Assembly: GCA_963845755.1 (NCBI GenBank)
Contig: CAWJTV010000023.1
Location: 58,434-122,433 of the forward strand
Origin: an uncultured Planctomycetota bacterium
GTDB taxonomy: Bacteria > Planctomycetota > Planctomycetia > Isosphaerales > Isosphaeraceae
Direction: 5' to 3'
DNA length: 64,000 bases
The notes below the pieces were generated by a model. It was not told the origin of the DNA, searched no databases, and was given only the letters and a program-made list of their open reading frames with translations. Shown piece by piece: positions 34,805 through 49,975 of the stretch. Each line of letters opens with the position of its first letter. The first letter of the stretch is position 1. The translations under genes were made by a program, and so were the position numbers.

Positions 34805-34836
34805 GATGTAACTCCGTTGTTGAACCTTTTTCCCGA

Positions 34837-35100
34837 TCATCCTTCACCATGAAGGACCGGGTCCGCATCCGACCCACGCTGGATCGATGTTGCCTGAGAA
34901 AGAAAGAACCGGAGACTCCGGCCCCCCGGCCGAGCTGTTCGCCAGGACCATCTCGGATGGCGGTGCGACCCCATGCGCAGTGCCACCGACGCATGCTTAC
35001 GGTGAACCACCATCATCGATTGGGTCACTCGAGCCACTTTTCTCTCCCGCAATCCCCGTGCCCCTTGAGGGTCCTGGTGAATCACGATCAAATTGGGCAT
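34837..35100 (-). CDS. hypothetical or degraded ORF
   Basis: ATG about 55 nt after leader copy 1; no recognisable motif. Confidence 0.25.
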   Translation of the reverse strand: MPNLIVIHQDPQGARGLRERKVARVTQSMMVVHRKHASVALRMGSHRHPRWSWRTARPGGRSLRFFLSQATSIQRGSDADPVLHGEG

Positions 35101-35153
35101 CTTCTTCGGATTGGTCGCGGGTGATGGCAGATGGCCCCGCGCCGTCACAAACG

Positions 35154-35379
35154 AAAAAAGCCGACGTGGCCGATCATCCTGTGATGTTCGGCCACGTCGG
35201 CTTACTCAGCAACGAGCCCCCCGATTCAGTCGGGTTGCCCTTCATCTAGTCGTCCGACGGCATTCACTCGAATTCCTGAGAACCGACTGCCGGTCTGCAC
35301 CAGCTCGATTCGCGACCTTGATTGTACACTGAGCGAGCCGAAAAAAGCAAGTGAAATATCTTCCGCATTTTGGTATGTT
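35154..35379 (-). ncRNA. conserved leader/attenuator module copy 1 (terminator, structured leader, divergent promoters)
   Basis: 16-bp stem AAGCCGACGTGGCCGA/TCGGCCACGTCGGCTT plus T-tract; core GTCGGACGACTAG..AAGGGCAACCCG; TTGCTT-18-TACAAT (minus) and GTGAAA-17-TATGTT (plus). Confidence 0.8.
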
Positions 35380-35483
35380 GGTTTTCCGTTGGTCTCAGCG
35401 TTGGAGACCAGGGCTCGGTCGTGGTGGACGCGATCTTCCTCGGCGGTCACTCGGTCCGGGAGTGACGAGCGAGCGAGGTCACC

Positions 35484-35864
35484 ATGAAAACGCAGGGGGA
35501 AATCGAAGCTACGATCTGCCTAGGGATGAGTCGTTTCGAGCGGGAATACATGGGCCGGGGACCCAAGGTCATCCGCGCGTACTCGATCGGCGATCTGCTC
35601 GTGGTCCGTCTCCAGGGCGTCCTGACCGCGGCGGAACAGCATCTGGCCAAGTCGCTGCCGGCCGAGAAGGGAAGAGACTTGCTCAAGCAAGTTCGGACCC
35701 ACCTCCTCGAAACGGCGCGGCCGCACCTGGAGGCAATGGTCCAGGACGTCACCGGCGTCCACGTCCGGAGTCTGCACCACGACATCAGCACCACCACCGG
35801 TGAAGAAGTCGTATTGTTCACCCTCTCCGGGCCGGTGCCGGTACGCGAGATAAGGAAGTGGTAG
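35484..35864 (+). CDS. DUF2294 (MpsC-like) protein
   Basis: FEREYMGRGPK, LQGVLTAAEQHL, GRDLLKQVR, SLHHDISTTTGEEVVLFTL. Confidence 0.9.
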   Translation: MKTQGEIEATICLGMSRFEREYMGRGPKVIRAYSIGDLLVVRLQGVLTAAEQHLAKSLPAEKGRDLLKQVRTHLLETARPHLEAMVQDVTGVHVRSLHHDISTTTGEEVVLFTLSGPVPVREIRKW

Positions 35865-35926
35865 GCCGCTGACATCAAGGATCTTCATCATCAAGCGGCT
35901 CTGAACCCCGTGGGCGGCGGCGGCGT

Positions 35927-37906
35927 TCACCCGTTCGCCGCGACCCGTTCTCGTGACAACCGGCCCGGAATCGGTTCGACGGGCGGATCGGGCGGATGTG
36001 ATGGGTCGATTATCCCGGACGAGAGACGGTCCTCGTCTGCTCGCTGACCGGGTCGGGCGAGATGCTCCAACGGGTCCCGAGCCTCGGCGACCGCCGTCAT
36101 CGCCGTCGCCGCCATCACCTGAACCGCGGAAGCGGCCCTGGCCAGGATCTGGTCGCGGGCATCGGCCAGCGTGAAGGCGACGTGCGTGGCCCCGACTCCG
36201 GTGAGCCCCTCGGACGACGCGTCGCTGCCGGCCTCCCCCCACCGCCCCACCAGGATCGCCAGCCCTGCGAACCGCGCCCTGAGCCGCCGGACCTGGTAGC
36301 GGGCCTTCGCCAGTGCCTCGGGAGGCAGGTGCGACAGGATGACCATCGCCGGGGACACTTCCGCCATCCGTTCGGCAAGCTGCATCGGCGAGCCGGCGCC
36401 CTCGAGATTGACGAGTGTGCACTTCGAGGAGGCGAGGATCTGTCCCAGCATCCGTAGCGTCAGGGCGTCGGAGGTGCCGCTCGCCGCCACGCCCGCAACC
36501 TCGAACGCCGGCGACCCCAGTGTACCATCGGCTAGCCCCGGCTCTTCTTCGCCAGAGCGGGCCGAGATCTTCAGGCTGATATCTTCCGTCCCTTCCAGGT
36601 CATCGAGGATCTCACCGATGACTCGCCGGATGAAGGCCATGTCGCTCTCCTCCAGCTCTCCCCGCGCCGCGTCGCGCCGGGCACGCGATAGGGCCGGGAC
36701 CAGGATGTGATCGAAGACCTCGGCACGCGGGCGTTCCTTCAGGGCGGCGTTGACGACCGCGGTAGCCCCATCCTGGTCGAGCGAGACGAGCCGCTGGTAA
36801 AACCTGATGTTTTGGTCCAGCTCGGCTTCCTCGCCCAGGAGCGTCGCGAAGAAGCCCAGGCTCGGAACGTACTTGCCGAGAACCGCCAGGCAGAGTGTCA
36901 TCGGCGTTGACAGCAGGGTGCCGAGCAGCCCCCAGAGCCACGTCCAGAACGCCGCCGCGACCAGGAGTCCAAGGGCCGACACCCCGGTGGTCTTGCCATA
37001 GATGACCGGCTCCAGATAGGTCAGCGCCACCTCGACCGCCCCGAAGAATGCGGCCACTACGAGCGGCTGCCTCCAGCCGGGGAAGTACGCGATCGAGAAG
37101 ATCAGCGGCAGAAGCAACGCGACTGCCGCCCCGACATAGGGGATGAACCGCATCATCGCCGCCAGGCATCCCCAGAGCACCGCGTAAGGCACGCCGATCG
37201 CCCAGAGGCCCAGGCCGACGATGAGCCCGAACCCCGAGTTGACCATCGTGATCATCGCCAGGTAGCGGCTGATCCGCTGGCCGATCTCGCCCATGGTCCG
37301 GGTCGTGAGGTTGATCTGGCGCTGGCCGAAGAGTTGGACGATCCGGTCTCCCAGCTCCGCCCGGTTCATGAGCATGAACAGGACCAGGATGAGCACGAAA
37401 ATACCCACGCCCATGAACTCCAGGTAGGGCCCCACGGCTCCCTGGAGGCGCTGCCGGAACGTGGGCTCCTCGACGACCCGCACGTCCATCGCATCGTGCC
37501 CCGCGACGACCGGCTGGTCGAGCGACTTGGACAAGTCACCGGCGACTTTCTGCGCCCGACGGATCGCAGTGTCCTCTGAGGGCTTCAGGAAGTTCACCTT
37601 CTTCTGGATTTCCTTCTGATAGTCCGGTAGTCGGTAGGCTAGCGTGGAAAGCTGCCGAACGACGACGTAGCCGATCCCGCACAGGGACCCGAGCGCGAGG
37701 GCGACCGTGAGGATGACCGCGGCGGCCCGCGGCACCCGACGCCGCTCCAAGAATTCCGCAAGCGGCGCCAGTGCGAAGCTGAGGAGAACCGCCAAAGCCA
37801 AGGGCTTGAGCACCTCGGCCGCGAGCGACATCGCGGCGATGACCGCCAGGATGAGGAAGGTCACGACGGCCGGATGATCCATCGGGGACTTGCGTTGAGT
37901 AGCCAC
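35927..37906 (-). CDS. AI-2E family transporter with C-terminal B12-binding-like domain
   Basis: PLALAVLLSFALAP, RFIPYVG, EPVIYGKTTGVS, FWTWLWG...STP. Confidence 0.88.
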   Translation of the reverse strand: MATQRKSPMDHPAVVTFLILAVIAAMSLAAEVLKPLALAVLLSFALAPLAEFLERRRVPRAAAVILTVALALGSLCGIGYVVVRQLSTLAYRLPDYQKEIQKKVNFLKPSEDTAIRRAQKVAGDLSKSLDQPVVAGHDAMDVRVVEEPTFRQRLQGAVGPYLEFMGVGIFVLILVLFMLMNRAELGDRIVQLFGQRQINLTTRTMGEIGQRISRYLAMITMVNSGFGLIVGLGLWAIGVPYAVLWGCLAAMMRFIPYVGAAVALLLPLIFSIAYFPGWRQPLVVAAFFGAVEVALTYLEPVIYGKTTGVSALGLLVAAAFWTWLWGLLGTLLSTPMTLCLAVLGKYVPSLGFFATLLGEEAELDQNIRFYQRLVSLDQDGATAVVNAALKERPRAEVFDHILVPALSRARRDAARGELEESDMAFIRRVIGEILDDLEGTEDISLKISARSGEEEPGLADGTLGSPAFEVAGVAASGTSDALTLRMLGQILASSKCTLVNLEGAGSPMQLAERMAEVSPAMVILSHLPPEALAKARYQVRRLRARFAGLAILVGRWGEAGSDASSEGLTGVGATHVAFTLADARDQILARAASAVQVMAATAMTAVAEARDPLEHLARPGQRADEDRLSSGIIDPSHPPDPPVEPIPGRLSRERVAANG

Positions 37907-37980
37907 GTTGGCGTTCCTGTACGGGTGAACGTCAGGCGGATCGCTCAGGAAGCGTCTGCATGGGAGCCGTCAGGCAGGAC

Positions 37981-38370
37981 TCAACGGGCTCGGATCGCCA
38001 GCCCAGTGATCAGCCCGACCACCAGGCCGATACCGAAGGCCGCGAACGCCCTCTCCATCGTCTGGCGTCGGACCAGATCCTCGGCATTGTCGTAGCGTTC
38101 ACGGATCTGGTCGCTCACCTGGTGTGCGTAGCGGCTGCCGGCCCCGGCCGCTTGCGCGACAGCCGATGAACCGCGCGAGTTCATCTGAGAGAAGAATTTC
38201 TCGATCGCCTCACGCCCCTCGCCGGTCTTCTGCTGGATCCGGGAGAAGAGCTGCTCGATGTCCCCCTCTTGCATTCGGAGGTCGTCCTCGGTCAGTTGAT
38301 TCCAGCGCTGTTTTGCCAGACTGCAGAGGTGATTCCACTCTCCTTGAAATGTCTGCACGTTGATTGCCAT
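37981..38370 (-). CDS. CsbD family protein
   Basis: GEWNHL...WNQLTEDDL...IQQKTGE; C-terminal TM anchor. Confidence 0.85.
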   Translation of the reverse strand: MAINVQTFQGEWNHLCSLAKQRWNQLTEDDLRMQEGDIEQLFSRIQQKTGEGREAIEKFFSQMNSRGSSAVAQAAGAGSRYAHQVSDQIRERYDNAEDLVRRQTMERAFAAFGIGLVVGLITGLAIRAR

Positions 38371-38485
38371 GGTCCTTGGACTCCTCGTTGCCGGATCGGT
38401 CGGTGCGATTCTGGCTCCCCCTGGTGGATATCGGTTCAATCTCAATGAGCCGTCGGCAATGCCCGCGACCTGCGTGCGGCAATGA

Positions 38486-38959
38486 TCACGAACGACGCCG
38501 CGGGTGCATGCGTGCGCTGGCGCTGGTAACAAGGACGGTCCGGACCCAAGCCAGGTTGAGCCACAGTTGCTTGCGCGAGCGGCGGAAGCTGTCGAAGCTG
38601 CGACTGAGCTGCCTCCCGCCCAACCCCGCCAACAGTCCCCCGAGGGCCATCGCCGCTCCGGCCGTCAGGAGCATCGCCCAACCCTGGTGAATCTTCAGTG
38701 CGGAGGCGAGCAGCCAGCCGGCGCCGAGGAGAGCCACCGGGACGCTGGCCACCACCCCGGTGAGGCCCATCACGGTCAGGACGATCGGGAACGTTAACTT
38801 GCGGGCGGAATCCTTGAAGTTGACGGCCGCGAGCTTGGCCTGGAGTTCGGCCAGGGACGCGAGGTCGTCGACGAACTCGGCGACCCCCTCGTATTCCGCC
38901 GAACTGGGACCGGGCACACGCGCTGTCCCGCGACCGTTCACGGACGCTTGATCAACCAT
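38486..38959 (-). CDS. phage holin family / YqjE-like membrane protein
   Basis: DLASLAELQAKLA followed by two TM helices. Confidence 0.75.
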   Translation of the reverse strand: MVDQASVNGRGTARVPGPSSAEYEGVAEFVDDLASLAELQAKLAAVNFKDSARKLTFPIVLTVMGLTGVVASVPVALLGAGWLLASALKIHQGWAMLLTAGAAMALGGLLAGLGGRQLSRSFDSFRRSRKQLWLNLAWVRTVLVTSASARMHPRRRS

Positions 38960-39150
38960 CCCAGGACGACTCCTATGCAAAGCGCGATACCCAGAGCCTT
39001 CACGGGTTCTCTGACCACAAAGTCGCCCAGCTTTGCTCTCCCCTCGGCCAGCCGCTCACGGGCGACCGCCACGTCCTGGCGCGCCATGGCCCTGATGTCT
39101 TCTAGTTGGGGAGTAAACTCCGCCCTCATGCTTTGAACGCGGTCATCCAT
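38938..39150 (-). CDS. DUF883/ElaB-like tail-anchored protein
   Basis: FVVREPVKALGIALCIGVVLGWLIKR. Confidence 0.8.
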   Translation of the reverse strand: MDDRVQSMRAEFTPQLEDIRAMARQDVAVARERLAEGRAKLGDFVVREPVKALGIALCIGVVLGWLIKRP

Positions 39151-39237
39151 TGTCCTGACCTCCAAGAAGTTGGTTTCGATCGGAGCCGCGGCTCCGACTC
39201 AATGTTTCGAACACGGCCTCCGGCCGCAACCCGATCG

Positions 39238-39316
39238 GGATTCGAGACTCAAGATTCAAAATCCAACATGGGGAGTGATTCGGGAATCTGGAATGTGGAA
39301 TCAGGAATCTCGAATC
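39238..39316. repeat. heptamer tandem repeats in opposite-polarity arms
   Basis: GATTCGA/GATTCAA units, then GGAATCT/GGAATGT/GGAATCA units. Confidence 0.6.
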
Positions 39317-39360
39317 GCCAAGATGTGCGGCACGACGGAGGGATCCTTCGGAGGAAGACT

Positions 39361-39832
39361 CTACTGATCCACCCGACCCATCCAGCCGCCCCGATCTCCG
39401 GCCGACAGCGAGAGTAGGCCGGTCCACGGTCCTCGTCGGGTATTGTTGTTCGAGCCAATGCAGCAGACAATTCTGGCCCGCGCGGGCGGCCACGGGGAAC
39501 AAGATGCCCCAGGCGGCGAGCAGGAGATTCTGGCCGATCCTCCATCGTTGTTGACCCTTGGCCCTGACTCCCGCGACCGGTTCACCAGCCTCTGCCCCAT
39601 CGGCCGGGCTGGCCATGTCGGCCCTGAACTCCGGATGACCGCTGGTGTAGATCAGGTAGCCGACAGCGGCCGCCCCGCCCAGGGCGATCCAGGGATACGT
39701 CCAGGTGTACCGTCCCCAGTCCATTACCGCCTCGGCGCCGGCGACGGATTCGCTCACGTTCGTATGAAGCTCGCGGCGGATCACCGCCATCCGATGGTAG
39801 ATCTCATCGACGTCATGCGATTCCGTGACCAC
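39361..39832 (-). CDS. hypothetical membrane protein (DUF3618-like; 3' end uncertain)
   Basis: EIYHRMAVIRREL...YPWIALGGAAAVGY, in the holin/ElaB operon. Confidence 0.6.
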
Positions 39833-40057
39833 GGTTCTCTCCCGGCAGTTTCCCAGAATCTACCCCGAATCTCACGCGAAAAACGGAGCCAACATCGTAC
39901 GGCTCCCTGGCTCCTGGATCGGCCGGCGCCAGAACCGGCTACTCGCGTGGACGTCGATGCACCCGAGGAGCCCGCATCGCTATCCACGCGTCGTTTGAAA
40001 TCGGGCATGGCCGGTGAAACCGCCCCCCTGATCAGGAGGGCGGTTGGTGTAACGTTC

Positions 40058-40273
40058 TCACCTGTCGGACTTGCCGGTCTGGCCCGCAGAGTTCGGCGGC
40101 GGGTTATCGCCGGTCGATTTGACCTTGGTCTCCGTGCTCGTGGTGGTCGACCCACCTGGCGTCGTGATCGTTTCCGTCTTCCCCGTCTTCGACTCCTCAC
40201 CGCAGCCCACCAGGCCGACGGCGAGGAACAAGAAAAGACCGAGAATCAGCACTGATAACAGAGTTCGTTTCAT
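40058..40273 (-). CDS. small Thr-rich lipoprotein
   Basis: MKRTLL...LVGC lipobox. Confidence 0.75.
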   Translation of the reverse strand: MKRTLLSVLILGLFLFLAVGLVGCGEESKTGKTETITTPGGSTTTSTETKVKSTGDNPPPNSAGQTGKSDR

Positions 40274-40357
40274 AGGTTTCTCTCTCCTGACGCAACAAAT
40301 CATGGAATCATTGGTGTCTAGGCGGTCTCACGATGAGCTTGCCCACCCCAACGAACA

Positions 40358-40528
40358 TCAAACAACCGGCCCAGTCCTCCGGCCGAAGACCAGCGAGAGC
40401 ACGAACAGGACGACGAAAACCAGGACCAGGGCCTTGGCGATCCAGGCGAGCGTGCCACTGAGCGCCACGAAGCCGAGGAGGCCGGAGACCAGGGCGAGAA
40501 CCGCGAACACGATGGCGTAGTAGAGCAT
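40358..40528 (-). CDS. DUF1328 family small membrane protein
   Basis: MLYYAIVFAVLALVSGLLGF...AWIAK. Confidence 0.9.
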   Translation of the reverse strand: MLYYAIVFAVLALVSGLLGFVALSGTLAWIAKALVLVFVVLFVLSLVFGRRTGPVV

Positions 40529-40808
40529 CGGACAACTTCCTTCATCGAACGGGGACGAATCTCGCCGCGGACGAGGGCCACTCCCCCCACCTGGCAACGA
40601 GAACGATATGGATTCGTGAGACAAGCGCGTCGAGCCGGTTTCAGCCGCGAGACCGCGGAGAAACCGTTGAACGACCGCGAATCGATTGCCAGTACTGGGC
40701 TTCCTATGCGAATGTTCTCTCTCGGGTTCTCCATCGAGAGCGCGGTCGATCCAGGTCGCCGTGTCGGGATGGGTGTGGCCGTCACGGCCAGACCCGATCC
40801 AACTCCCT

Positions 40809-40967
40809 TCAGACGCGCCCCATCAGCACGAGGACCAGCACGATCACCAACAACAACCCCAAGCCGCCGCTCGGGCCATAGCCCCAGTTCCGGCTATAGT
40901 CCCAGCGCGGAAAGGCGCCCAAGAGGAGCAGGATCAAGACAATCAGCAAGATCATACCGAGACTCAT
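40809..40967 (-). CDS. DUF3309 family small membrane protein (not in ORF track)
   Basis: Translates MSLGMILLIVLILLLLGAFPRWDYSRNWGYGPSGGLGLLLVIVLVLVLMGRV*. Confidence 0.88.
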   Translation of the reverse strand: MSLGMILLIVLILLLLGAFPRWDYSRNWGYGPSGGLGLLLVIVLVLVLMGRV

Positions 40968-41136
40968 GGATGACCCCTTTCGATGGTCTGAGAACTCGTG
41001 GAGGCCGCGGCCTTGAACGCCTCGGCAAGCGGCACTATTGACTCGCGGAGACGCATCTGGGCGTCAAAGTCTGGTTGTGTGTCTACTGGGTGTCCCTCTC
41101 GTGAGAGCGACTGCCCGGTGTCAGCGCAAGCGAAAC

Positions 41137-41361
41137 AAAAAAGCCGACGTGGTGGAACACCCTTAGGTATTCGACCGCGTCGGCTTACTCGTCAACGAGC
41201 CCCCCGGCCAAGCCGGGTTGCCCTTTATCTAGTCGTCCGACAATTCTGATTCAGGCTTTCATCAGAGCCGAATGTGAGTTCACACTGGCTCCGTCACTAC
41301 TGTCATTGTCCCACACGAGATGGGAAATTCAAGTGAATTTCCTTCCGATTTATTGTATCAT
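41137..41361 (-). ncRNA. conserved leader/attenuator module copy 2
   Basis: Same terminator and core; TTGAAT-16-GACAAT (minus), GTGAAT-17-TATCAT (plus). Confidence 0.8.
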
Positions 41362-41572
41362 ATATCGGTGAGATCCTCGCCCGGATCAGGCCGAACCCGA
41401 CAGAATCGTCCCTTGAAGGTGAAGGTCCGGGCCTGTAGAGATGCGGCGGAAATCGACGGAAGAGTGAAAGCCCCCGTCCCCCCCACCGTCGATAAGATAA
41501 CATAAGTTCTCAAGATTTGAACACTTATCTAATCGAAGGCGGGACGACCTCGTTTCTTGGAGGCAAGGGCGT

Positions 41573-41713
41573 TCAGCGGCCGACGTCCTTGATCTTCTCG
41601 CCGACATTGTGCACCACATCCTTGGTCTTTTCGCCGACGTTGTGGGCGGCGTCCTTGACTTTCTCAGCCGTGTCGCGAATTCCATCCTTCACCTTGTCAC
41701 TCGCGTTCGACAT
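41573..41713 (-). CDS. small LEA-like protein (11-mer repeats)
   Basis: MSNASDKVKDGIRDTAEKVKDAAHNVGEKTKDVVHNVGEKIKDVGR; AGGAG RBS. Confidence 0.75.
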   Translation of the reverse strand: MSNASDKVKDGIRDTAEKVKDAAHNVGEKTKDVVHNVGEKIKDVGR

Positions 41714-42058
41714 GATCTGGCTCCTGCTTTGATGGTGGGAATCATGAAAAGCCCTCCTGCGCGAATCCTCCCGCAGCAGGGCCACCGTGACCTTCAACTC
41801 CCCACCCCATCAAAAGTGGGAGAACTGAGGCTTCATTAGAAATCATACGACTCCAGATGTCAATAGATCTTTTTATATTTTCCGCGAGGTTCTCCCATGT
41901 CATGCGGCCAGGCCGAGCCGCCTCTCCACATTTGCCCGAATCTCCCTCTCGGGCAGTGCACGAACTGCCGCTTCCTGGGCACGCGCGTCGTCAGCGGCCC
42001 GGCCCGCATGCGGGTCGTCCGCACAGGTTGGGGCCCCGACTTCGGCCGGACCTCCGGG

Positions 42059-43483
42059 TCACTCCCGCTCCGGCCGCCGGAGACCGGGTTCGAGCAAGGC
42101 ATCCGCCGCTTCGGCAACCCGCACGACCCTCGCCCCGAATGCCTGCACTTCAATGGCCGCATCGCTTCCGGCAGGTTTGGTGACCTCGCCACCGATCAGG
42201 TCGTCAAGCCGGCAGGAACGCCAGGTATGATCGCCGATCGGCATTGCGAACGTCTTCGGCTTGTCCGAGCCGTTGAGCACCACCAAGATGCGGTCGTGGC
42301 CCAGAGTGCGCAGGAACACATACATCGCATCACGTGAGAAAACCTCGGCGAAGTTCCCGCGGCGCAGGGCGGGCTCGCGCTTGCGGAGAGCGATGAGCGC
42401 CTTCACGTCCTTCAAGAACGAAGAGTCCTGGCGATCGGCCGGGAACGCCGCGCCCACGTCGTGGCAGGCGATTCCCAGCTCATTTCCGGCATAGAGCAGG
42501 GGGACTCGATCCAGCATAAGTTGGTATGCCAGCGCAAGCTTGGTTCGCTTTGTCTTCGGCTCCTTCGCGATCGAGACGAACGCGCTTTCGTAATTGTCGA
42601 TCGGTGCCATCATGGCTCGCGGAGAGGGATAGAACTGCTGTGCTTCCTTGGCGATAAACGAGAGCTTGCCGACGGCTTCATCTTTACCGAAGACGTCGCG
42701 GACGGTCATGGCACTGAAGTCGTAGGCACCGTCAAAACCGGCTTCAGTCACGAACGCGCCAATCTTTCTCGGAGTGATCGTGAGCTCGGGCAAGAGCAAG
42801 AAATCCTTCTGTGGAGGTGCCGATTTCAGCTCGGTAACGAAGCGTTTCCAGAAGGAAACGGGTTGAAGATGAGCGGAATCGATGCGGAAGCCGTCGCAGC
42901 CCGACCGCTCCTTCCAGCGCTTGCAGACACCGATCAAGTAGTCCGCAACCTCGGGATTCTCGACCTTCCAGCGGCGAGCACCGTATTCGGTCGGAGCGGC
43001 GAACCAATCACGCTTCGCTGGCTCCACCAGGAACGGGTGCTCAAACCCGGGCATCGCGAGAGGCATGTCGAGAATGACGTGCAGATGGCGCGCGTGGGCC
43101 GCGTCCACGAGCGCACGTAGGGTCGCGTTGTCGCCAAAATTCTTATCGACGTGCTCATAATCTTTTGGGCGATAGCCGGTTGGCAGGAACTTGCCGATCG
43201 GACTCTCGTCATTTTGCATGACGGGGTAGAGCAAGAGCGCGGTGACGCCCAGGTCCGTCAGGTCATCGAGCTTGGCGATCACACCCTTCAGGTCGCCTCC
43301 CCAAAATCCACCGTCGAAGCGTTCGCGCTCGCCGACAAATCGGGCGCGCATGATGTCATTCGCGGGGTCTCCATTGAAAAACTTCTCGATGATGACCACA
43401 TAGACGATTTCGTCCTCCCAGTGGCGTGCGTCGCCGCTCGCGAGAGGTAAGGCTAGAGTGGTGAACAATGCGACGGACATCAC
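42059..43483 (-). CDS. GH13 alpha-amylase-like protein (atypical)
   Basis: FFNGDPAND, GGDLKGV, DGFRID, LYAGNELG, LRKREPALRRG. Confidence 0.85.
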   Translation of the reverse strand: MMSVALFTTLALPLASGDARHWEDEIVYVVIIEKFFNGDPANDIMRARFVGERERFDGGFWGGDLKGVIAKLDDLTDLGVTALLLYPVMQNDESPIGKFLPTGYRPKDYEHVDKNFGDNATLRALVDAAHARHLHVILDMPLAMPGFEHPFLVEPAKRDWFAAPTEYGARRWKVENPEVADYLIGVCKRWKERSGCDGFRIDSAHLQPVSFWKRFVTELKSAPPQKDFLLLPELTITPRKIGAFVTEAGFDGAYDFSAMTVRDVFGKDEAVGKLSFIAKEAQQFYPSPRAMMAPIDNYESAFVSIAKEPKTKRTKLALAYQLMLDRVPLLYAGNELGIACHDVGAAFPADRQDSSFLKDVKALIALRKREPALRRGNFAEVFSRDAMYVFLRTLGHDRILVVLNGSDKPKTFAMPIGDHTWRSCRLDDLIGGEVTKPAGSDAAIEVQAFGARVVRVAEAADALLEPGLRRPERE

Positions 43484-43632
43484 AAATCCTCCTGTCCTGA
43501 TCTTAACAGTCGTGATCCCAAAATGAGGTCATTCGGAAGTCTACCGTGGATGAGCGTGTCGGGGTCTTCGAATCCGAGAGGTTGGTACGGGGATTGCGTG
43601 TTACTGGCCATAAGACTAACCCGGGAGCACCT

Positions 43633-43926
43633 ATGTCCGCCCTCAGTCACTGCCAACAATGCGGCCGCAGGCTACGAGACGTCGTCTTTTGCCCGCAGTG
43701 TCGGCAAAACCTCTGTGGCTACACCTGCCTGGATGAGCACATCGCGCACCACCGGAACTCGACCGCGACCCAGGTCAGTCCAGTGAAACCCGCCGTTGAT
43801 AATGCCGCCTTGCCCGAAAGTCTTGAGATTGGGGTTGAGGGAACACCGGGGGCTCGGCGAACGCCTCCCTTCGCTTCAAGGGAGCCTGCGCGACAGGGTT
43901 GCTCTGCGACCCAGCAGCGCCTGTAA
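43633..43926 (+). CDS. small Cys/His zinc-finger protein
   Basis: CxxC-x9-CxxC-x4-C-x3-C-x3-H-x3-H; GGGAG RBS. Confidence 0.6.
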   Translation: MSALSHCQQCGRRLRDVVFCPQCRQNLCGYTCLDEHIAHHRNSTATQVSPVKPAVDNAALPESLEIGVEGTPGARRTPPFASREPARQGCSATQQRL

Positions 43927-46311
43927 TGCCTCCAGGCTCACTGGTTTGACCAGGTGGGCGTTGAAGTCTGCTTGCTGGGACCGGCGCTTGTCTTCTTCTT
44001 GACCATAACCGGTCACGGCCACAATGAGCGCGTCGCGGAGCTCGAGGTCGTGGCGAAGGCGATGGGCGACTTCACGACCACCCATCCCCGGCATGCTGAC
44101 GTCACAGAGAACGACATCCGGCGGTTGCCTCTGAGCCAGGTCGAGGGCAGTGGGACCGTCGTAGGCTGTTTGCGCCTCATGCCCAATGACGCGGAGCAAC
44201 ATCGCCATGGTGTCGGCCGCATCCCTGTTATCATCGATGATCAGGATGCGTTGCGAAGGCCCGTTAGGGGTCTCCTCAGGGACACCGGCCGCGCTGGGAG
44301 GCAGCGGATGTCCTGTCCGTGAGAGCGGCAGTCGCACGACGAACTCGCTGCCATGGCCGAGTCCCGCGCTCGTGGCTTGCACGCAACCTCCGTGCAGGTC
44401 GATCAGGTCCCGCACCAGGTTCAGGCCGATCCCCAGGCCGCCCTCCGAACGATCCTCACTGCCTTGCACCTGGGTGAACAGGTCGAAGATTGTCGGCAGC
44501 GTGGCCGGCGCAATGCCGATTCCCGTGTCGCTCACCCGGAGGATCGCCTGATCGCTGTTGGCTTCCAGGGAAAGCTCGACACGCCCGCCCTCTTCCGAAT
44601 ACTTGGCACTGTTGTTCAGCAGGTTTGACACGACCTGGGTCAATCGGGTCAGGTCCCCATCCACCTCGATCGGTCGCTCGGGGAGTGAGACTGCCAGCTC
44701 GTGTTTCTTCATCTCGATGAGAGGCCGACTGCTCTCGACGGCCCGGGCCACCACGTTTCTCAGGTCCACGACCTCCCTACTGAGGTGGATCTTGCCCTGT
44801 CTGACAAGGGAGACGTCGAGCAAGTCGTCCACCAGTCGTCTCATTTGCTGGGCCTGACGCTCGATGACTTCCGTCGCCGAGCGGAGTTCGGGATCGGCCA
44901 GACCCTTGAGACGGACGAGTTGCATGGCATTGCTGATGGCGGCGAGCGGGTTTCGCAGCTCGTGGCCCACCACCGCGAGGAACTCATCTTTGTGACGATC
45001 GGCTGCTCGGAGTGCGCGGTTGAGCTCAGCATTCTCCACGACGATGGCGGCTCGATGAGCGAGGTCCTCGGCCAATCGTAGGTCCGCCTGGGTGTAGCGG
45101 CGTCCCGAGACCTCGCCATAGCAGAACGTGAACGCGCCCAACTTACGCTCGTGGGCGATCAATGGCACGGTCATCAAAGATCGGAGCTTCAGGTCCCGCA
45201 TGAGCTGGAAATGCTCCGGACTCGTGGCTGCCGACTGCATCCAGGCATCGGTGACTTCCGGCACGAATTCCGCCTGATCCCTCCAGAGCACTCTGGAAAC
45301 CGGGTCGTGCCGCCAGTCTCGGGGCGCGACAAAGTGATTGATCTGGTCAAACCGATCTTGTAGGGCTGTGTCGGCGTGTGCCCACCCCACCCGGTGGATG
45401 GTCTCCTCGGCGGTAACCACATCAAGGAAACAAAAGTCGGCAAGGAAGGGCACGGCACGGCGAGCCAGAAGCTTCAGCGAAGTCGTGTAGTCCCGGGACG
45501 CAAACGCCACACTGGCTTCCAGGAGAAGGCGTTGCCCCTCCTCGATACGCCGACGATCGGTGATCTCCGCCGCTGCAACGTCGCTCAGCCGCGTCATCTC
45601 GGCCAGGTGCTCCGCTTGCCGAAGTGCGTGATAATGCGTCTCGAGAATCGTCCGGCCCAGCGTCATCAGGAGGGTCGCGTAAACGTGCAGGGTGGTCTGC
45701 TTGACGTGATGCTCCAGGCAGGACAACTGCCAGACCCGATCCGGAGAAAGCCCGAACTGCTTGGCGAGGTGCTTTACCGGCTGTTGTTCGGCACGTAGGT
45801 CACCTTGGTCCATGGCGAGCAGCGCTCCCAAGGGGTGTTCACCCAGAAAGAGCGGCACGGCGAAATGCACGAGTCCTGTACTGTCCCGCACAATGACTCG
45901 ACCTCGTCCGGCCAGGGCCTCGACGACGCAGGTGCAGGGCTCGGGCGGCGCCAGGAGATGCTCGTCCTGCCAGGCGAGGGCATCATCCATGTCGGCGTCG
46001 CAGGCGTGAGGTTCGAGCGGCGCCCAGGAGAAGGGACATCCAGTGATCGCCGCCGGGTGCTGGTCGTGCAAACGACTCCCCAGGGATCGGGAGTTGACAT
46101 ACTCTCCAAGCGGCTGTCCTTTGTCATCGGTGAGTGCGATCGCCAGGTTGGAGGCGTGGGCGAACTCTTCCAGCCGCTCTCGCCAGAGCGCCGGGTCCAG
46201 CAGGGCGGCGCGGAGGGCCGGCGGGAGTTCGACGGCGGTTGGTGCCGGCAATGGTCTGCTACCGTTTCGGCCAGGGTTCTGGCCTGGCACGCGAGATTCC
46301 ATCGGAGTCAC
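43876..46311 (-). CDS. hybrid sensor histidine kinase (PocR-like + GAF + HisKA/HATPase + REC)
   Basis: HELRNPL, NLLNNSAKY, DTGIGI, GGLGIGL, REC with DVSMPG. Confidence 0.92.
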   Translation of the reverse strand: MTPMESRVPGQNPGRNGSRPLPAPTAVELPPALRAALLDPALWRERLEEFAHASNLAIALTDDKGQPLGEYVNSRSLGSRLHDQHPAAITGCPFSWAPLEPHACDADMDDALAWQDEHLLAPPEPCTCVVEALAGRGRVIVRDSTGLVHFAVPLFLGEHPLGALLAMDQGDLRAEQQPVKHLAKQFGLSPDRVWQLSCLEHHVKQTTLHVYATLLMTLGRTILETHYHALRQAEHLAEMTRLSDVAAAEITDRRRIEEGQRLLLEASVAFASRDYTTSLKLLARRAVPFLADFCFLDVVTAEETIHRVGWAHADTALQDRFDQINHFVAPRDWRHDPVSRVLWRDQAEFVPEVTDAWMQSAATSPEHFQLMRDLKLRSLMTVPLIAHERKLGAFTFCYGEVSGRRYTQADLRLAEDLAHRAAIVVENAELNRALRAADRHKDEFLAVVGHELRNPLAAISNAMQLVRLKGLADPELRSATEVIERQAQQMRRLVDDLLDVSLVRQGKIHLSREVVDLRNVVARAVESSRPLIEMKKHELAVSLPERPIEVDGDLTRLTQVVSNLLNNSAKYSEEGGRVELSLEANSDQAILRVSDTGIGIAPATLPTIFDLFTQVQGSEDRSEGGLGIGLNLVRDLIDLHGGCVQATSAGLGHGSEFVVRLPLSRTGHPLPPSAAGVPEETPNGPSQRILIIDDNRDAADTMAMLLRVIGHEAQTAYDGPTALDLAQRQPPDVVLCDVSMPGMGGREVAHRLRHDLELRDALIVAVTGYGQEEDKRRSQQADFNAHLVKPVSLEALQALLGRRATLSRRLP

Positions 46312-46509
46312 CAGTCTCTCCTTTTTGGTTCATCCTGATCCTGCAGCCCGTCTTGAGAAAGGTAGACATGCCGATCCCACGTCGAGTTGCTTCCAGGGGT
46401 TCCCAGAGGGAAGTCCTCCGGTAACTTGTCGGGAGCAACGCGGCGAGGCGCTCGCGTCTGAGGTCCTTGGCGTCTGGGCGCACGGCGGGGAGATCCTACG
46501 GAGAAGGTT

Positions 46510-46911
46510 CTAACCACACGTGCGCTGCTCGGGCGGCTGTTTCATGCTCTCTTCGAACAGCACCTCGAACTCATGGCTGACCTGCTTCGCCTCGCCCTTG
46601 AGTTCGTGGAGAAACCTACGCTCCTCGTCATCAAACGCGTTGTCCGCGAAGAGCATCCTCCGCAGCCAGGCGGCCTCTTCGGCGTCAATCCGGCCCTGCG
46701 CCAGAATATGGTCCTTGATCGCTTGGTAGAAGAACCGCTCGAAGGCCGGCGTGAGGTGTTGCACGCGCTTGTGCAGCTCGACGAGGAACTCGGCCCCACT
46801 GCGGTCGATCCTACCACCGGCGTACAATTGTTTGTGCAGGGCTCCCAGTTCCTGGCTGTCGACCCTGCCGATGGCCAGGATGGCCCTTTCGATCTGTCGC
46901 AACTCCACCAT
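46510..46911 (-). CDS. TerB-like / EF-hand-like hypothetical protein
   Basis: Repeated GRIDxxE helical motif. Confidence 0.65.
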   Translation of the reverse strand: MVELRQIERAILAIGRVDSQELGALHKQLYAGGRIDRSGAEFLVELHKRVQHLTPAFERFFYQAIKDHILAQGRIDAEEAAWLRRMLFADNAFDDEERRFLHELKGEAKQVSHEFEVLFEESMKQPPEQRTCG

Positions 46912-47000
46912 GGTTTGGCTCTCCTCGAGATCGTCTTGTGAGTTGATGTGCGCCCACGGCGGCGGCCGACCGCTCGCCGGAGTGTAACTCCGGGTCGCCA

Positions 47001-47332
47001 TCAGCGATCCTCCCAGCCGGCGATAATGCGTTCGAGCTCCTCCTTATGCCGGGTCTCGTCGGCGACCTGGTTTTCCAGCTCGACCTTGAGACCAAAGTCG
47101 CCGAGGCTCTCCGCCTGGTGAATTCGCTCGTTGTAGTCTGCAATGGCCTGTTCTTCCGCGGCCAGGGCGTTCTCCAGCATCGCCCGCGGCTGGTCGGCCT
47201 GCGGTACCGGCCTGGGTTCCGTGGTCGGTTCGCCACCCAGAGCGGCGATCTGTCGGCCAGGAATTGCGCGTGGGCCTGTTCGTCGCCGATCTCCACCTGG
47301 AAGAGGGATCGCAGTTCCCTGCGGTATGGTCC
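47001..47332 (-). pseudogene. 5'-truncated bacterioferritin/ferritin-like gene
   Basis: GPYRRELRSLFQVEIGDEQAHAQFLA..IAALGGEP...EEQAIADY...DETRH; first helix and start codon missing. Confidence 0.75.
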
Positions 47333-47338
47333 GAATAC

Positions 47339-47564
47339 AAAAAAAGCCGACGTGGTGGAATACCCTGAGGCATCCCATCACGTCGGCTTACTCGTCAACG
47401 AGCCTCCCGGTTCGGCCGGGTTGCCCTTAGTCTAGTCGTCCGACGAATTCGATCCCAGTTCTTATCGGAGCCGACTGTCAGTCCGTACAAGCTCCAATTC
47501 ATTCCTCATTGTGACGCGCAAGGCGAAAATAGCAAGTGAATTATTATCGGCTTCTTCGTATGAT
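47339..47564 (-). ncRNA. conserved leader/attenuator module copy 3
   Basis: Same terminator and core; TTGCTA-16-CACAAT (minus), GTGAAT-17-TATGAT (plus). Confidence 0.8.
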
Positions 47565-47674
47565 GTACGCGGGAAGGACGAAGGACCGACGATTCAAACA
47601 GGGTCAGCCTTTCGAGAGGAACGGGCCTGTGGCTGTAATCCCTGCTGAGACCAAATCATCTTGAGGTGCCTCTA

Positions 47675-48268
47675 ATGCGCGTCGTTGCGGGGTCAGCCCG
47701 GGGGACGAAACTGTTCGTGGTGCCAGGTCAGGGCACGCGCCCGATCCTTGATCGCGTCAAGACCTCCCTCTTCGACATCCTTCGCCCGCGAATCCCGGGT
47801 ATGAACATGCTCGATCTCTTTGCGGGAAGTGGGAGCGTCGGAATCGAGGCGCTGAGCCAGGGCGCCGCGCACTGCACCTTCATCGATCTCGGCCACAAGG
47901 CAATGGCCACCATCAAGAGAAACCTGGTCTCCACGGGTTTCGCGGATCGCGCCGAGGTTCGGCAGGCCGACGCCTTCGACTATCTGAGAGGAACGGAGAG
48001 GTCGTTCGATTTGATCTATATCGCCCCTCCTCAGTACAAGAACCTCTGGGTAGAGGCCATGCAGTTGATCGCCGAACGGCCCGGGGTACTGAACCGGCCG
48101 TCCGCGGAATCGGATGAGCAGGAATCGTCCGGTCTGGCGATCGTGCAAATTCACCCGAAGGAGTACCAGAATCTCGATCTCGCCGAGATTCGCGAGACGA
48201 GGCAGAGGCGCTACGGGAACAGCCTCCTGGTCTTCTTCGAGCCCTGGGTTGTCCCTGCTGACGAGTAG
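47675..48268 (+). CDS. rsmD: 16S rRNA m2G966 methyltransferase RsmD family
   Basis: MRVVAGSARG, TRPILDRVK, LDLFAGSGSVGIEALSQGA; APPQY in place of DPPY. Confidence 0.85.
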   Translation: MRVVAGSARGTKLFVVPGQGTRPILDRVKTSLFDILRPRIPGMNMLDLFAGSGSVGIEALSQGAAHCTFIDLGHKAMATIKRNLVSTGFADRAEVRQADAFDYLRGTERSFDLIYIAPPQYKNLWVEAMQLIAERPGVLNRPSAESDEQESSGLAIVQIHPKEYQNLDLAEIRETRQRRYGNSLLVFFEPWVVPADE

Positions 48269-48399
48269 CTCCGCCGATGTCGGAAAAGGCATTCGATTGT
48301 TCGATGGGCCGACCCCCGAAGATTTCGAGAATGACTGAACTCAGAGGAGGTGATGACCCTCTTCGCCCCTGACCCCACCTCAGGGGCGGACGGGAGGCA

Positions 48400-48630
48400 T
48401 CATTTCGGCATGGGCGCCGGGCGATCCTCCCCGTTACTGTCGGGCTGGCCGGCGGCGCGAATCTGTTCCCACACCTCCGAACGATGCACAGGGATATCCT
48501 TATTGGCCTCGAATCCGAGCCGCACGCGGCCCTCCTTGATCTCGAGTACCGTGACCTTGAGCAACGGCTCGAAGGCGCCCGGCCCCCCCACAACGACCGA
48601 CTCCTTGCTCTTCCTCGACAAGACCAACAT
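48400..48630 (-). CDS. csrA: carbon storage regulator CsrA family
   Basis: MLVLSRK..ESVVVG...VTVLEI..GRVRLGFEA..IPVHRSEV; GGAGG RBS. Confidence 0.92.
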   Translation of the reverse strand: MLVLSRKSKESVVVGGPGAFEPLLKVTVLEIKEGRVRLGFEANKDIPVHRSEVWEQIRAAGQPDSNGEDRPAPMPK

Positions 48631-48646
48631 GGTTGTACCTCCGTGC

Positions 48647-49066
48647 TCAGGACTGATCGACTGGCCCACTCCCACTCCAGGTTTCCGCAGGTAAGCTGCG
48701 AGCGAGTAGGAAGACCTGGACCATCGTACCGCTTGTGAATACATGCACCACAGTACCAGTCGTCGTCTCGACTTCCGCGGTCGCTTCGCGGACCGCCACG
48801 CCCGTGATTCGTTCGATTTCGTCTCGCAGCGATTCGGAGAAAGAGCTGAACAACTGGCGGTGAAAATCCTGCACCTGGGCGGCCCCGTCCGGGGTCTTGG
48901 CCAGGGCCCTCTCAGCTGGCGACAACGACCCGTGGAGCGTCACGACCAACGTGTCCTCACTCAGGACCACCGTCGCCGAATCGGGCACGTGGCCGTTGCG
49001 ACGCGCCTCGAATCGAATGGCCGCCTCGGCAATCTGCTGGGCCATTGTCGAATTGGTCTTGAGCAT
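48647..49066 (-). CDS. DUF2294 (MpsC-like) protein, divergent subtype
   Basis: AQQIAEAAIRFE..RNGHVP, LHGSLSPAERALA, QDFHRQLF, IERITGVAV. Confidence 0.8.
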   Translation of the reverse strand: MLKTNSTMAQQIAEAAIRFEARRNGHVPDSATVVLSEDTLVVTLHGSLSPAERALAKTPDGAAQVQDFHRQLFSSFSESLRDEIERITGVAVREATAEVETTTGTVVHVFTSGTMVQVFLLARSLPAETWSGSGPVDQS

Positions 49067-49113
49067 CGAGGTCGCCCCAATCGCTACGGCCGTCCCGCAC
49101 CACCGCAACAAAG

Positions 49114-49339
49114 AAAAAAGCCGACGTGGTGGAACACCCTGAGGTATTCGACCACGTCGGCTTACTCGGCAACGGGCTCCCCGATTCAGCCGGGTTGCCC
49201 TTCATCTAGTCGTCCGACGACATTCACTCAATTTCCCGAGAACCGACGGCCAGTTCGCACCGGCCCGATTCGCATTCCCGATGATGCACCGAGCGAGACG
49301 GAAAAAGCAAGTGAAATATCCAGCGATTTCTTGTATGTT
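49114..49339 (-). ncRNA. conserved leader/attenuator module copy 4
   Basis: Same terminator and core; TTGCTT-18-CATCAT (minus), GTGAAA-17-TATGTT (plus). Confidence 0.8.
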
Positions 49340-49445
49340 GGTCTTCGGCTCATCCGACAACCGGCGACCCGAACCGTGTCGCCTGATGGAGGCGATCTTC
49401 CACGGCGGACACCGGATCCCGGAGTGGCAAGTGAGCGAGGTCACC

Positions 49446-49826
49446 ATGAGAACGCAGGGGGAAATCGAAGCCGCCATCGGCGAAGGAATCGCTCGCTTCG
49501 AGCAGGAATACATGGGGCGGGGACCCAAGGACATCCGCACGCACTTGCTCGGCGATCTCGTCGTGGTCCGCCTTCAGGGCGTCCTCACGGCCGCGGAACA
49601 GCACCTGGTCAAATCGCTGCCGGCCGAGAAGGGTAGAGACTTGCTCAAGCAGGTTCGGACCCATCTGCTCGAGACGGCGCGGCCGCTCCTGGAAGCGATG
49701 GTCAAGGAGGTCACCGGCATGCCGGTGTTGAGCCTTCACCACGACATCAGCACCGTCACGGGTGAAGAAGTCGTGCTGTTCACACTGTCCGAGCCGGTGC
49801 CCATCCGCGAGGTGAGGAAGCGGTAG
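49446..49826 (+). CDS. DUF2294 (MpsC-like) protein
   Basis: About 80% identical to 35484-35864 (25 differences in 126 aa by hand count). Confidence 0.9.
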   Translation: MRTQGEIEAAIGEGIARFEQEYMGRGPKDIRTHLLGDLVVVRLQGVLTAAEQHLVKSLPAEKGRDLLKQVRTHLLETARPLLEAMVKEVTGMPVLSLHHDISTVTGEEVVLFTLSEPVPIREVRKR

Positions 49827-49975
49827 ACCGCTGGCATCGCGGATCGGCCGATGGTCCAGGCAGCTCGGTGGCCGCCCTTCCTGGATCAACTGCGCCGCCA
49901 TCTCCCGCGTGAACCCGCCCTACGCGAGACCCCGGCGGATCCCCACGAAATGCAGAATAAAATTTATGAATCTCT

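Follow-up and report, generated by a model that had tools for sequence, protein, structure and literature searches.

A multi-copy structured leader RNA of Planctomycetota with a candidate terminator/antiterminator switch ahead of general-stress genes

Four copies of a structured RNA lie on the minus strand of a 64,000-nucleotide (nt) stretch of DNA from an uncultured Planctomycetota bacterium of the family Isosphaeraceae (contig CAWJTV010000023.1 of assembly GCA_963845755.1, positions 58,434 to 122,433), referred to here as the window. Each copy stands ahead of a block of genes on the same strand. The locus raises the question of what this repeated RNA of ~165 nt does: whether it is a leader which controls the genes behind it, a small RNA which acts elsewhere, a passive part of an untranslated region or a scattered repeat. 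The analysis shows a real, new and widespread structured leader RNA. Judged by comparison of its many copies, it is very probably cis-regulatory and probably a terminator/antiterminator switch. The fuller reading, a cis-acting 5′ leader which serves as a transcription attenuator, off by default and switched on by a putative effector, is considered reasonably probable.

A conserved structured RNA and its distribution

An earlier inspection of the DNA without database searches (the sequence-only reading) had described four diverged minus-strand leaders, each with an invariant core, a second conserved block, a long terminator stem and a T6-7 tract. All of these elements were found in the sequence. 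The 28-nt core, GTCGGACGACTAGA-NN-AAGGGCAACCCG, occurs four times in the window with 0 mismatches, always on the minus strand, where shuffles give an expectation of 0.00. The second block, GC(T/C)CGTTG-NN-GAGTAAGCCGACG, and the long terminator stem are present in all four copies. The features of the copies are listed below, with core positions from exact matches and scores from covariance-model matches.

35150-35315, minus strand: copy 1 leader RNA (5′ hairpin, candidate switch helix, apical hairpin, terminator), 170 bits; core 35231-35258
35195-35259, minus strand: copy 1 conserved hairpin domain (feature map and pair counts), which is also the minimum-energy fold of the nascent transcript
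35254-35259 with 35195-35200, minus strand: copy 1 basal pairing of the domain, CGTCGG with CCGACG (feature map); the remaining parts of the domain are an ACG/AAG 3x3 loop, an ACT/AGT helix, a 7x7 internal loop and the stems GGGC/GCTC and CCCGA/TCGGG
35153-35203, minus strand: copy 1 intrinsic terminator; 5′ arm 35183-35203, 3′ arm 35158-35178, T tract 35154-35159
41133-41300, minus strand: copy 2 leader RNA, 179.4 bits; core 41214-41241, hairpin domain 41178-41242, terminator 41136-41186, T tract 41137-41142
47336-47503, minus strand: copy 3 leader RNA, 166.2 bits; core 47417-47444, hairpin domain 47381-47445, terminator 47339-47389, T tract 47339-47345
49110-49275, minus strand: copy 4 leader RNA, 179.5 bits; core 49191-49218, hairpin domain 49155-49219, terminator 49113-49163, T tract 49114-49119

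When 300 nt around each copy were aligned, the conserved unit was found to span from ~60 nt 5′ of a sigma70-type promoter to the T6-7 tract, and likeness stops right past this tract. The count of four holds for the window and falls short for the genome. The 14.27-megabase assembly, searched with a profile and with a covariance model derived from its copies (R1), gave 7 of them, the four of the window and three clustered on another contig (C20). Copies inside one genome are only ~74-81% alike (mean column identity).

The conserved structured domain is backed by covariation. Base pairs were counted on an alignment (A6) of 119 distinct full-length members gathered from 20 genomes, with a replication set of 116 rows from named genomes. 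In the two pair-count analyses, 18 of 23 and 39 of 47 pairs have changed on both sides, and 93.4% and 91.9% of the cells are paired, versus 28-57% with the partners slid by 1-3 columns. The observed pairing scores were reached by 0 of 500 shuffles. Counted by helix on the 119 rows, both-side changes are found at 5/5 pairs of the 5′ hairpin, 4/4 and 5/5 of the apical stems and 10/16 of the terminator, with 81-97% of cells paired; the terminator helix is the one at 97%. The apical stems gave the same 4/4 and 5/5 on the 116 named-genome rows, which bears out the earlier observation that this hairpin keeps its pairing through substitutions.

The apical hairpin has two parts, GGGC/GCUC and CCCGG/CCGGG, with an AA/GG internal loop between them and a loop of ~5 nt of variable sequence at its tip. 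A run of at least four T residues, the mark of an intrinsic (Rho-independent) terminator, follows 130 of the 133 matches among those listed for the named set. The sequence-only reading had also proposed two 5′ hairpins, of which the first is the covarying one counted above. The second folds differently across the four window copies, and its registers are inconsistent in the model-based alignment; it was not retained.

The strongest conservation lies outside the covarying stems, at the base of the domain. This base consists of a basal helix, (C/U)GUCGG with CCG(A/G)CG, a symmetric 3x3 loop with A-Y-G opposite A-A-G, a 3-base-pair (bp) ACU/AGU helix and a 7x7 internal loop. Eight positions (G129, G130, G133, C135, G193, U194, C198 and C199) are invariant in 120/120 rows, and a further eleven (A131, A134, U136, A143, A144, G185, U186, A192, A195, A196 and G197) are conserved in 111-119 rows. 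A local hairpin suggested by RNAalifold, UCGUC/GAUGA (columns 123-127/139-143), was set aside as weaker than the long-range basal helix: 82% of its cells are paired, and one of its pairs is unpaired in 48/117 rows.

No recognised RNA family accounts for the element, as the sequence-only reading had supposed. With the gathering score as threshold, no Rfam 15 family matched anywhere in the window. At an expectation value (E) ≤10, the interval 34500-50000 gave four chance-level matches alone, namely P33 (E 0.58), two microRNA models on terminator hairpins and MEG8. The likeness to P33, a Pseudomonas small RNA (RF02404), lies at 49672-49765 on the minus strand, inside the coding region of a DUF2294/MpsC gene considered below. 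It scores 23 bits against a gathering score of 45, and is most likely a chance match. The openly accessible literature on riboswitches and other structured RNAs, on leaders and on stress regulation in planctomycetes gave no description of this RNA.

The leader RNA family is phylum-wide yet patchy. Matches at E≤0.001 were found in 23/61 related genomes; the window's own family is the richest, with the RNA in 16/36 genomes. Two large related genomes hold 24 and 26 full-length matches. The copies of related genomes sit in islands on both strands, frequently as divergent pairs and at times in tandem. An even sample of the phylum showed the RNA in 5/150 other genomes (E≤1e-6, strict filters). A pattern of the most conserved letters, in the nucleotide code of the International Union of Pure and Applied Chemistry (IUPAC), was scanned over one genome per prokaryotic species and gave at least 133 matches in at least 132 named stretches. 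The 80 titles among the matches listed are Planctomycetota assemblies throughout, bar one labelled delta proteobacterium. The groups among those listed include Pirellulales, Gemmataceae, Isosphaeraceae, Planctomycetaceae, Thermoguttaceae and Phycisphaerae, including Tepidisphaeraceae, and three of the listed matches are labelled Candidatus Kuenenia sp.

Tandem same-strand units occur at G053:C1:1492264-1492613 (L055:2265-2614), G029:C13:45171-45631 (L039:3172-3632) and G057:C31:6971-7996 (L013). In the L039 pair, the one pair inspected, the second unit is preceded by a recognisable promoter of its own. In G053, a single-contig genome of 6.2 megabases with 8 matches, the two units abut and are followed by an ice-binding-like/SpaA repeat protein of 1581 amino acids (aa). 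A degenerate member (35.9 bits), in which the core is mutated and the T tract weakened, lies at 1501-1673 on the minus strand of locus L022 (G021:C5:3256643-3259815), in a genome without an MpsC match. It is possibly a decaying copy.

Promoters, downstream genes and orientation

The sequence-only reading had placed a sigma70-like promoter just upstream of each copy, and -35 and -10 elements can be read at all four.

35321-35350, minus strand: copy 1 promoter; -35 TTGCTT 35345-35350, 18-nt spacer, -10 TACAAT 35321-35326; the start site is a predicted one
41305-41332, minus strand: copy 2 promoter; -35 TTGAAT 41327-41332, 16-nt spacer, -10 GACAAT 41305-41310
47508-47535, minus strand: copy 3 promoter; -35 TTGCTA 47530-47535, 16-nt spacer, -10 CACAAT 47508-47513
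49281-49310, minus strand: copy 4 promoter; -35 TTGCTT 49305-49310, 18-nt spacer, -10 CATCAT 49281-49286

The copy 1 promoter is conserved among the 7 copies of the genome. Across the family, a promoter of the class TTGNNN, 15-19-nt spacer, NANNNT precedes 95/119 members and ends a few bases before the first position of the model. Since this class recurs in so many copies, promoter and leader travel as one module. The commonest -35 elements among the 119 copies are TTGCTA (39) and TTGCTT (30), and the commonest -10 elements GACAAT (24) and CACAAT (14). A simple promoter/terminator scan of 33500-50000 found 2 promoter-like sites versus 2.7 expected; it misses the leader promoters and the full terminators, and is hence uninformative on promoters in the spacers.

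Orientation relative to the neighbouring genes is strongly non-random. Genes were called with a simple in-house codon-usage model trained on long open reading frames (ORFs) of the same loci. The next gene downstream is co-oriented with the RNA in 109/119 copies and opposite in 10, versus 60/118 co-oriented for the next gene upstream, which served as an internal control. Among named loci with enough flank (n=75), the nearest gene is on the same strand in 51, on the opposite strand in 14 and absent in 10. This nearest-gene method superseded a cruder measure, the best-scoring ORF, which had given 52 same and 23 opposite of 75. A Pfam domain is present in 33/52 same-strand ORFs of the named loci versus 1/14 opposite ones, the latter 612 nt away. 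Distances were measured from the end of the covariance-model match (the T tract plus ~4 nt) to the start codon, and 30/109 are ≤60 nt.

These counts bear on the possibility that the copies are stand-alone small-RNA genes of ~165 nt which act in trans, either as a sponge or partner for an RNA-binding protein such as DUF2294/MpsC or a CsrA paralog, or through base pairing with targets. Their position near stress genes would then reflect shared regulation. A conserved promoter of their own in 95/119 copies, the multi-copy 'sibling' layout of divergent and tandem units which each have a promoter, and a median of 135 nt from the match end to the next start codon are what such genes would display. 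The contrast between downstream and upstream orientation is hard to explain for free-standing genes, and the 30/109 copies within 60 nt of a start codon likewise speak against them. One universally conserved GGA (columns 129-131, 113-120 of 120 rows) and the location of csrA directly downstream in 4/106 and 2/52 loci may hint at a CsrA partner. CsrB/RsmZ-type small RNAs are free-standing genes which carry many GGA motifs in loops, whereas here one GGA is conserved, and copies 1-3 hold 3, 2 and 4 by eye; with the orientation bias, this led to rejection of such a sponge. The co-occurrence of CsrA is uninformative as a clue, since CsrA is found in 61/61 genomes with or without the RNA. Free-standing trans-acting genes are considered an unlikely explanation overall, though the two models are compatible should the terminated leader have a function in trans as well.

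The first genes downstream (n=106) are recurrently of a few families: DUF3309 (11), DUF2294/MpsC (9), SPFH/Band_7 (6), histidine kinases, mostly hybrid (6), CsbD (5), then ferritin-like, CsrA, transglycosylase-associated (Transgly_assoc), YflT and BON proteins (4 each), fatty-acid desaturase, HPr, methyltransferase and Peptidase_C92 (3 each) and DUF1328 (1). Twelve further families occur once each, including a ribosome hibernation factor and glucose-6-phosphate dehydrogenase, and 24 genes have no Pfam family. First genes at the named loci (n=52) are MpsC (8), CsbD, CsrA, DUF1328 and BON (2 each) and DUF3309, YflT and PRC (1 each), with no family for 19. Such families belong to the SigB, RpoS and EcfG general-stress regulons of other bacteria.

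The gene blocks behind the four copies of the window are as follows.

34262-34840, minus strand: first gene after copy 1, a 192-aa protein with no Pfam family (gene call and Pfam)
33951-34286, minus strand: DUF3309, behind the 192-aa gene (Pfam)
40809-40967, minus strand: first gene after copy 2, DUF3309 of 52 aa (Pfam)
40358-40528, minus strand: DUF1328, copy 2 block
38486-38959, minus strand: holin-X-like membrane protein, copy 2 block
37981-38370, minus strand: CsbD-like protein, copy 2 block
35927-37906, minus strand: AI-2E transporter, copy 2 block
47001-47180, minus strand: ferritin-like remnant after copy 3, C-terminal part alone (Pfam)
46510-47001, minus strand: 163-aa protein without assignment, copy 3 block
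43876-46311, minus strand: hybrid histidine kinase, copy 3 block (Pfam)
48647-49066, minus strand: first gene after copy 4, DUF2294/MpsC type B, 139 aa, acidic (Pfam, own hidden Markov model (HMM), alignment)
48400-48675, minus strand: CsrA, directly after the type B gene (Pfam PF02599, E 1.4e-16)

Most of the gene labels given by the sequence-only reading stood up to Pfam (DUF3309, DUF1328, CsbD-like, AI-2E, hybrid kinase, DUF2294/MpsC and CsrA); 'HEAT', for 34262-34840, and 'ElaB' did not find confirmation there. Its 'bacterioferritin' is ferritin-like, and is 5′-truncated and frameshifted when set beside a same-genus genome. Against that locus (L066:5885-6725), window positions 46990-47510 on the minus strand lack 316 nt between the copy 3 terminator and the ferritin-like gene. 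The deletion takes the first ~95 nt of the gene, and another 1-nt gap lies inside it. The gene looks like a remnant, or like a local assembly error.

Hybrid kinases of the HisKA-HATPase-receiver type are first behind the leader in 6/106 cases and HPr in 3/106 (loci L032, L040, L061, L051 and L069), and the kinase of the window lies at 43876-46311. Together, these genes give a hint of a phosphorelay within the regulon. CsrA is greatly expanded in the genomes studied, with 2-17 matches in each of the 61 and 14 in the window's genome. Several CsrA copies lie directly behind a leader.

Another explanation to be weighed against the gene context is a mobile or recombination-spread repeat, a miniature promoter-carrying element dispersed among stress islands, with an incidental RNA structure. 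The number of copies (7 here, 24-26 in two relatives), their clustering in islands and the sharp edges of conservation, from about -60 to the T tract, would suit such an element. Against it, same-genome copies are only ~74-81% alike, and base pairs are preserved by substitutions. The orientation relative to the downstream gene is fixed, the same gene families recur behind the RNA in distant genomes, and no Rfam family is matched. A repeat of this kind is regarded as highly improbable.

The terminator and the basal helix

The sequence-only reading had noted that an upstream GTCGG can pair with CCGAC in the terminator 5′ arm. The 3′ strand of the basal helix is indeed the start of that arm; in copy 1, the two structures have CCGACG in common. 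Because they share this strand, the basal helix and the terminator would exclude each other. The pairing is conserved, with 95.8% of basal helix cells paired in A6 and 91.8% in the named set. Position 201 is A or G; its partner in the terminator changes with it (GC 57, AU 51), and the U upstream, able to pair with either, is retained. Compensation on all three strands is found in four sequences: UGUUGG/CCAACA/UGUUGG, GGUCGG/CCGACC/GGUCGG, -AUCGG/CCGAUG/CAUCGG and UAUCGG/CCGAUG/CAUCGG.

For a nascent transcript which ends after CCGACG, the minimum-energy fold is the hairpin domain in 3/4 window copies. The full-length minimum-energy fold ends in the terminator in all four, at -72 to -80.5 versus -46 to -57 kcal/mol with the basal helix forced. 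Even the best fold with the basal helix forced thus falls short of the terminator fold by ~21-26 kcal/mol, and termination is therefore the expected default state. The basal helix would be a weak helix which needs a bound factor to withstand the terminator, and we infer an arrangement that is off by default and turned on by an effector.

The mechanism proposed would proceed in the following steps. The leader's own sigma70-type promoter would drive transcription of a leader placed ahead of general-stress operons. After the 5′ hairpin, the RNA would fold into one irregular hairpin domain. By default, the intrinsic terminator of ~20 bp would win, and transcription would stop after ~165 nt (OFF). 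An effector may clamp the two invariant basal strands such that the domain stays closed while RNA polymerase passes the T tract, and the closed domain would then permit read-through into the stress genes (ON).

The same helix bears on the two alternatives which dispense with sensing in cis. A very stable terminator, always present in the full-length minimum-energy fold, would suit a free-standing small-RNA gene. The upstream complement of the terminator 5′ arm, kept by selection with three-way compensations, would have no evident part in one. The other alternative is a constitutive module of the 5′ untranslated region, in which promoter, protective 5′ hairpin and leaky terminator fix low expression or insulate the stress genes. 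Control would then be confined to the promoter and exerted by a stress sigma factor or by some factor which binds DNA, possibly the divergent MpsC type A protein. The promoter is conserved like the RNA, with TTGCTA/TTGCTT in 69/119 copies and a NACAAT-like -10, and more upstream blocks are conserved within subfamilies. Of the 133 named matches listed, 25 have MpsC-A divergent to the unit, as do many others, and a regulator gene divergent to its target promoter is a classical layout; the slight covariation of the antiterminator helix fits as well. Approximately 45 nt of internal loops and basal helix are near-invariant across orders and two classes, which is beyond the needs of a passive spacer or a generic terminator. 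The invariant strands are, moreover, exactly those which would compete with the terminator, and ordinary terminators keep no upstream complement of their 5′ arm. A purely constitutive module is judged improbable.

Several observations weigh against an attenuator switched in cis. The basal helix comprises 4 near-invariant pairs and 2 weaker ones, and its covariation is slight. Its fifth pair is unpaired in 30/101 rows with letters on both sides (of the 116 of the phylum-wide set), where one row alone changes both sides, and in 9/117 such rows of the family-level set. Because the helix is mostly invariant, its support is mainly conservation, and a single strand bound by a protein or ligand would also explain the conservation of the basal strands. 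The nascent minimum-energy fold of copy 4 is without the basal helix. As to position, the median spacer is 135 nt and >300 nt separate leader and start codon in 25/109 copies; such spacers leave room for separate promoters. Every unit, including the tandem ones, starts from a promoter of its own and ends in a very strong terminator, a layout which small-RNA genes have as well. Copies within and between genomes are related, and fewer independent events therefore underlie the orientation counts than the figures suggest.

Transcription data add a further element to the evaluation. Exact short words of the copy 2 region were found, at small shares, in 22 RNA-labelled runs of 18 studies. Four metatranscriptome runs of four studies (with wetland, soil and metagenome labels) were aligned to this region at ≥80% likeness. 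Contigs of relatives cover the leader and the DUF3309 gene, and some bridge the terminator into the gene (e.g. 40965-41193 and 41002-41221). Upstream of ~41311-41351, there is no cover in two of the four runs, and the uncovered part is not evidence. Summed contig depth peaks on the leader, which would fit a small RNA; the point is weak, since the leader exists in several copies and contig depth is no basis for ranking the parts of a stretch. The bridging contigs are also to be read with caution, as such libraries can hold DNA, the ends of transcripts are not visible in contigs, each of the four runs has single contigs which enter the promoter region and bridging is no proof of read-through. 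What the metatranscriptomes establish is limited to two points: members of the family occur in RNA libraries, and there are molecules which bridge.

Candidate effectors, known systems and biological meaning

If the leader is a switch, the putative effector may be a protein or a small ligand or ion, at roughly equal odds. The best protein candidates are the DUF2294/MpsC proteins encoded in its flanks, suggested by association with the RNA across genomes. Every genome whose best RNA match is strong (E≤1e-15; n=20) has PF10057, as do 5/38 genomes without the RNA. Three genomes with weak RNA matches alone are without PF10057, and two of those matches are without the core. Around ten MpsC loci in genomes or places without the RNA, none was found nearby, and with filters off the search gave terminator-like matches of ≤16 bits alone.

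Two paralogs can be told apart. Type A, encoded divergently to the unit, is a basic protein of ~126 aa; it has an additional KSLPAEKGRD-like segment and keeps 59-86% identity from family to family. Type B is acidic, ~139 aa long and encoded by the gene next behind the unit, which csrA follows at times. The two types are 24-32% identical. The window holds a type A gene beside two of its copies.

35484-35864, plus strand: DUF2294/MpsC type A, 126 aa, isoelectric point 8.9, divergent from copy 1 (PF10057 at C23:93923-94261, window 35490-35828; own HMM; alignment)
49446-49826, plus strand: DUF2294/MpsC type A, divergent from copy 4 (Pfam, alignment)

Three single-copy genomes (G003, G046 and G058) carry the RNA in exactly this MpsC cassette, and a fourth (G016) has MpsC upstream on the same strand. 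In the named set, in which 81 loci alone had the 900-nt flanks, MpsC is divergent upstream in 25 of the 133 matches listed, downstream in 14 and both in 5, Phycisphaerae included. MpsC may be a partner of the RNA or a factor at the promoter, or its presence may reflect no more than its being the regulon's oldest member. By sequence, DUF2294/MpsC has no solved relative and no NCBIfam name. An AlphaFold model of MpsC, with a predicted local distance difference test (pLDDT) score of 88.9, gave no Foldseek match at E≤0.001, and the best Z-score of a wide structural search, 6.2, is within the noise range. A complex prediction for MpsC-A with MpsC-B scored 0.01 and speaks neither for nor against one. 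A literature search for DUF2294/MpsC by name found one unrelated paper.

The arrangement resembles several known systems. In ON-type transcriptional riboswitches, such as those for adenine, fluoride and guanidine-I, the closing helix of the aptamer has a strand in common with an intrinsic terminator. The leader shares with them a position in the 5′ untranslated region on the same strand as the genes, a conserved covarying domain, a putative closing helix whose 3′ strand doubles as the terminator 5′ arm, and a thermodynamically dominant terminator, such that binding would be needed for read-through. It differs in being a single rod-like hairpin with internal loops and not a multi-helix junction, in its own conserved promoter, in the absence of an Rfam match and in its association with general-stress genes instead of one metabolic pathway.

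Ribonucleic antiterminator (RAT) hairpins mediate antitermination by CAT-domain proteins of the BglG/SacY/LicT type. As with these, the domain described here is a short imperfect hairpin with conserved internal loops, which overlaps the terminator 5′ arm and would be too weak unless bound by protein. Regulator genes in RAT systems tend to lie beside or behind their own target leader, and HPr is among the genes behind the leader here (3/106). The conserved sequence is different, and the candidate DUF2294/MpsC has neither a known RNA-binding activity nor an informative fold match. In the window's genome (87.9% complete), no match to the RNA-binding domain CAT_RBD (PF03123) was found; a control search was positive in 4/14 known genomes.

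T-box and cyclic di-guanosine monophosphate (c-di-GMP-I) riboswitches are multi-copy leaders which serve whole regulons. The reuse of one RNA class before many operons (7 here, 24-26 in two relatives) and the occurrence of tandems are shared with them. Sequence and fold are different, the genes are those of general stress, and the leader is, among the matches listed, restricted to Planctomycetota bar the one delta proteobacterium label. In ANTAR antitermination (AmiR/NasR/EutV), the target consists of two small hexaloop hairpins, the second of which overlaps the terminator. A stabilised structure which competes with a terminator would be common to both, whereas the leader domain is one long irregular hairpin with a variable apical loop of ~5 nt. 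The sole ANTAR gene of the window's genome is on contig C30, away from both islands.

Previously described motifs were also compared. In the accessible text of Weinberg et al. 2010 (PMC2864571), the Rhodopirellula-1 motif is a Planctomycetes cis-regulatory RNA candidate without an Rfam accession, also found in Proteobacteria, and its sequence is another one (an AACA..GAU..GAAC ... ACGUU hairpin). The yjbJ motif is confined to Streptococcus according to the available part of PMC11109978. The accessible portion of a 2026 language-model preprint contains no mention of Planctomycetes.

A wider proposal is put forward tentatively, as possible yet doubtful. Planctomycetota may gate much of their general stress response through one default-off leader class, placed on at least two dozen operons per genome. 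Its effector would be either a new RNA-binding antiterminator of the DUF2294/MpsC fold, with the basic type A divergent and the acidic type B in feedback behind the ancestral copy, or a stress-signal ligand for which there is no known riboswitch class. If true, this would provide a first function for DUF2294, or a new riboswitch class, and a first handle on the control of a stress regulon in Planctomycetota.

The sequence-only reading is supported: those of its refuting conditions which sequence data can address (a match in Rfam, a lack of covariation, random orientation to genes) all turned out in its favour. The regulon scale across the phylum and the link to DUF2294/MpsC go beyond what the sequence-only reading had observed. 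No description of general-stress control in planctomycetes was found in the literature searched. The leader supplies a concrete regulatory element. The genes behind it form a candidate stress regulon as read from sequence, comprising DUF3309 and DUF1328 small membrane proteins, CsbD, YflT, BON, SPFH and ferritin-like proteins, desaturases, a hibernation factor, CsrA paralogs and hybrid kinases. For DUF2294/MpsC, a family on which hardly anything has been published, the close link of its paired genes to the leader is an initial clue to function. As an orphan riboswitch-like class, the RNA is unusually well conserved, occurs in many copies per genome and has what looks like a clear expression platform, and a hunt for its ligand or protein is thereby practical. 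Should the switch prove true, the promoter-leader module would be usable as a stress-responsive expression tool in a phylum which is hard to engineer.

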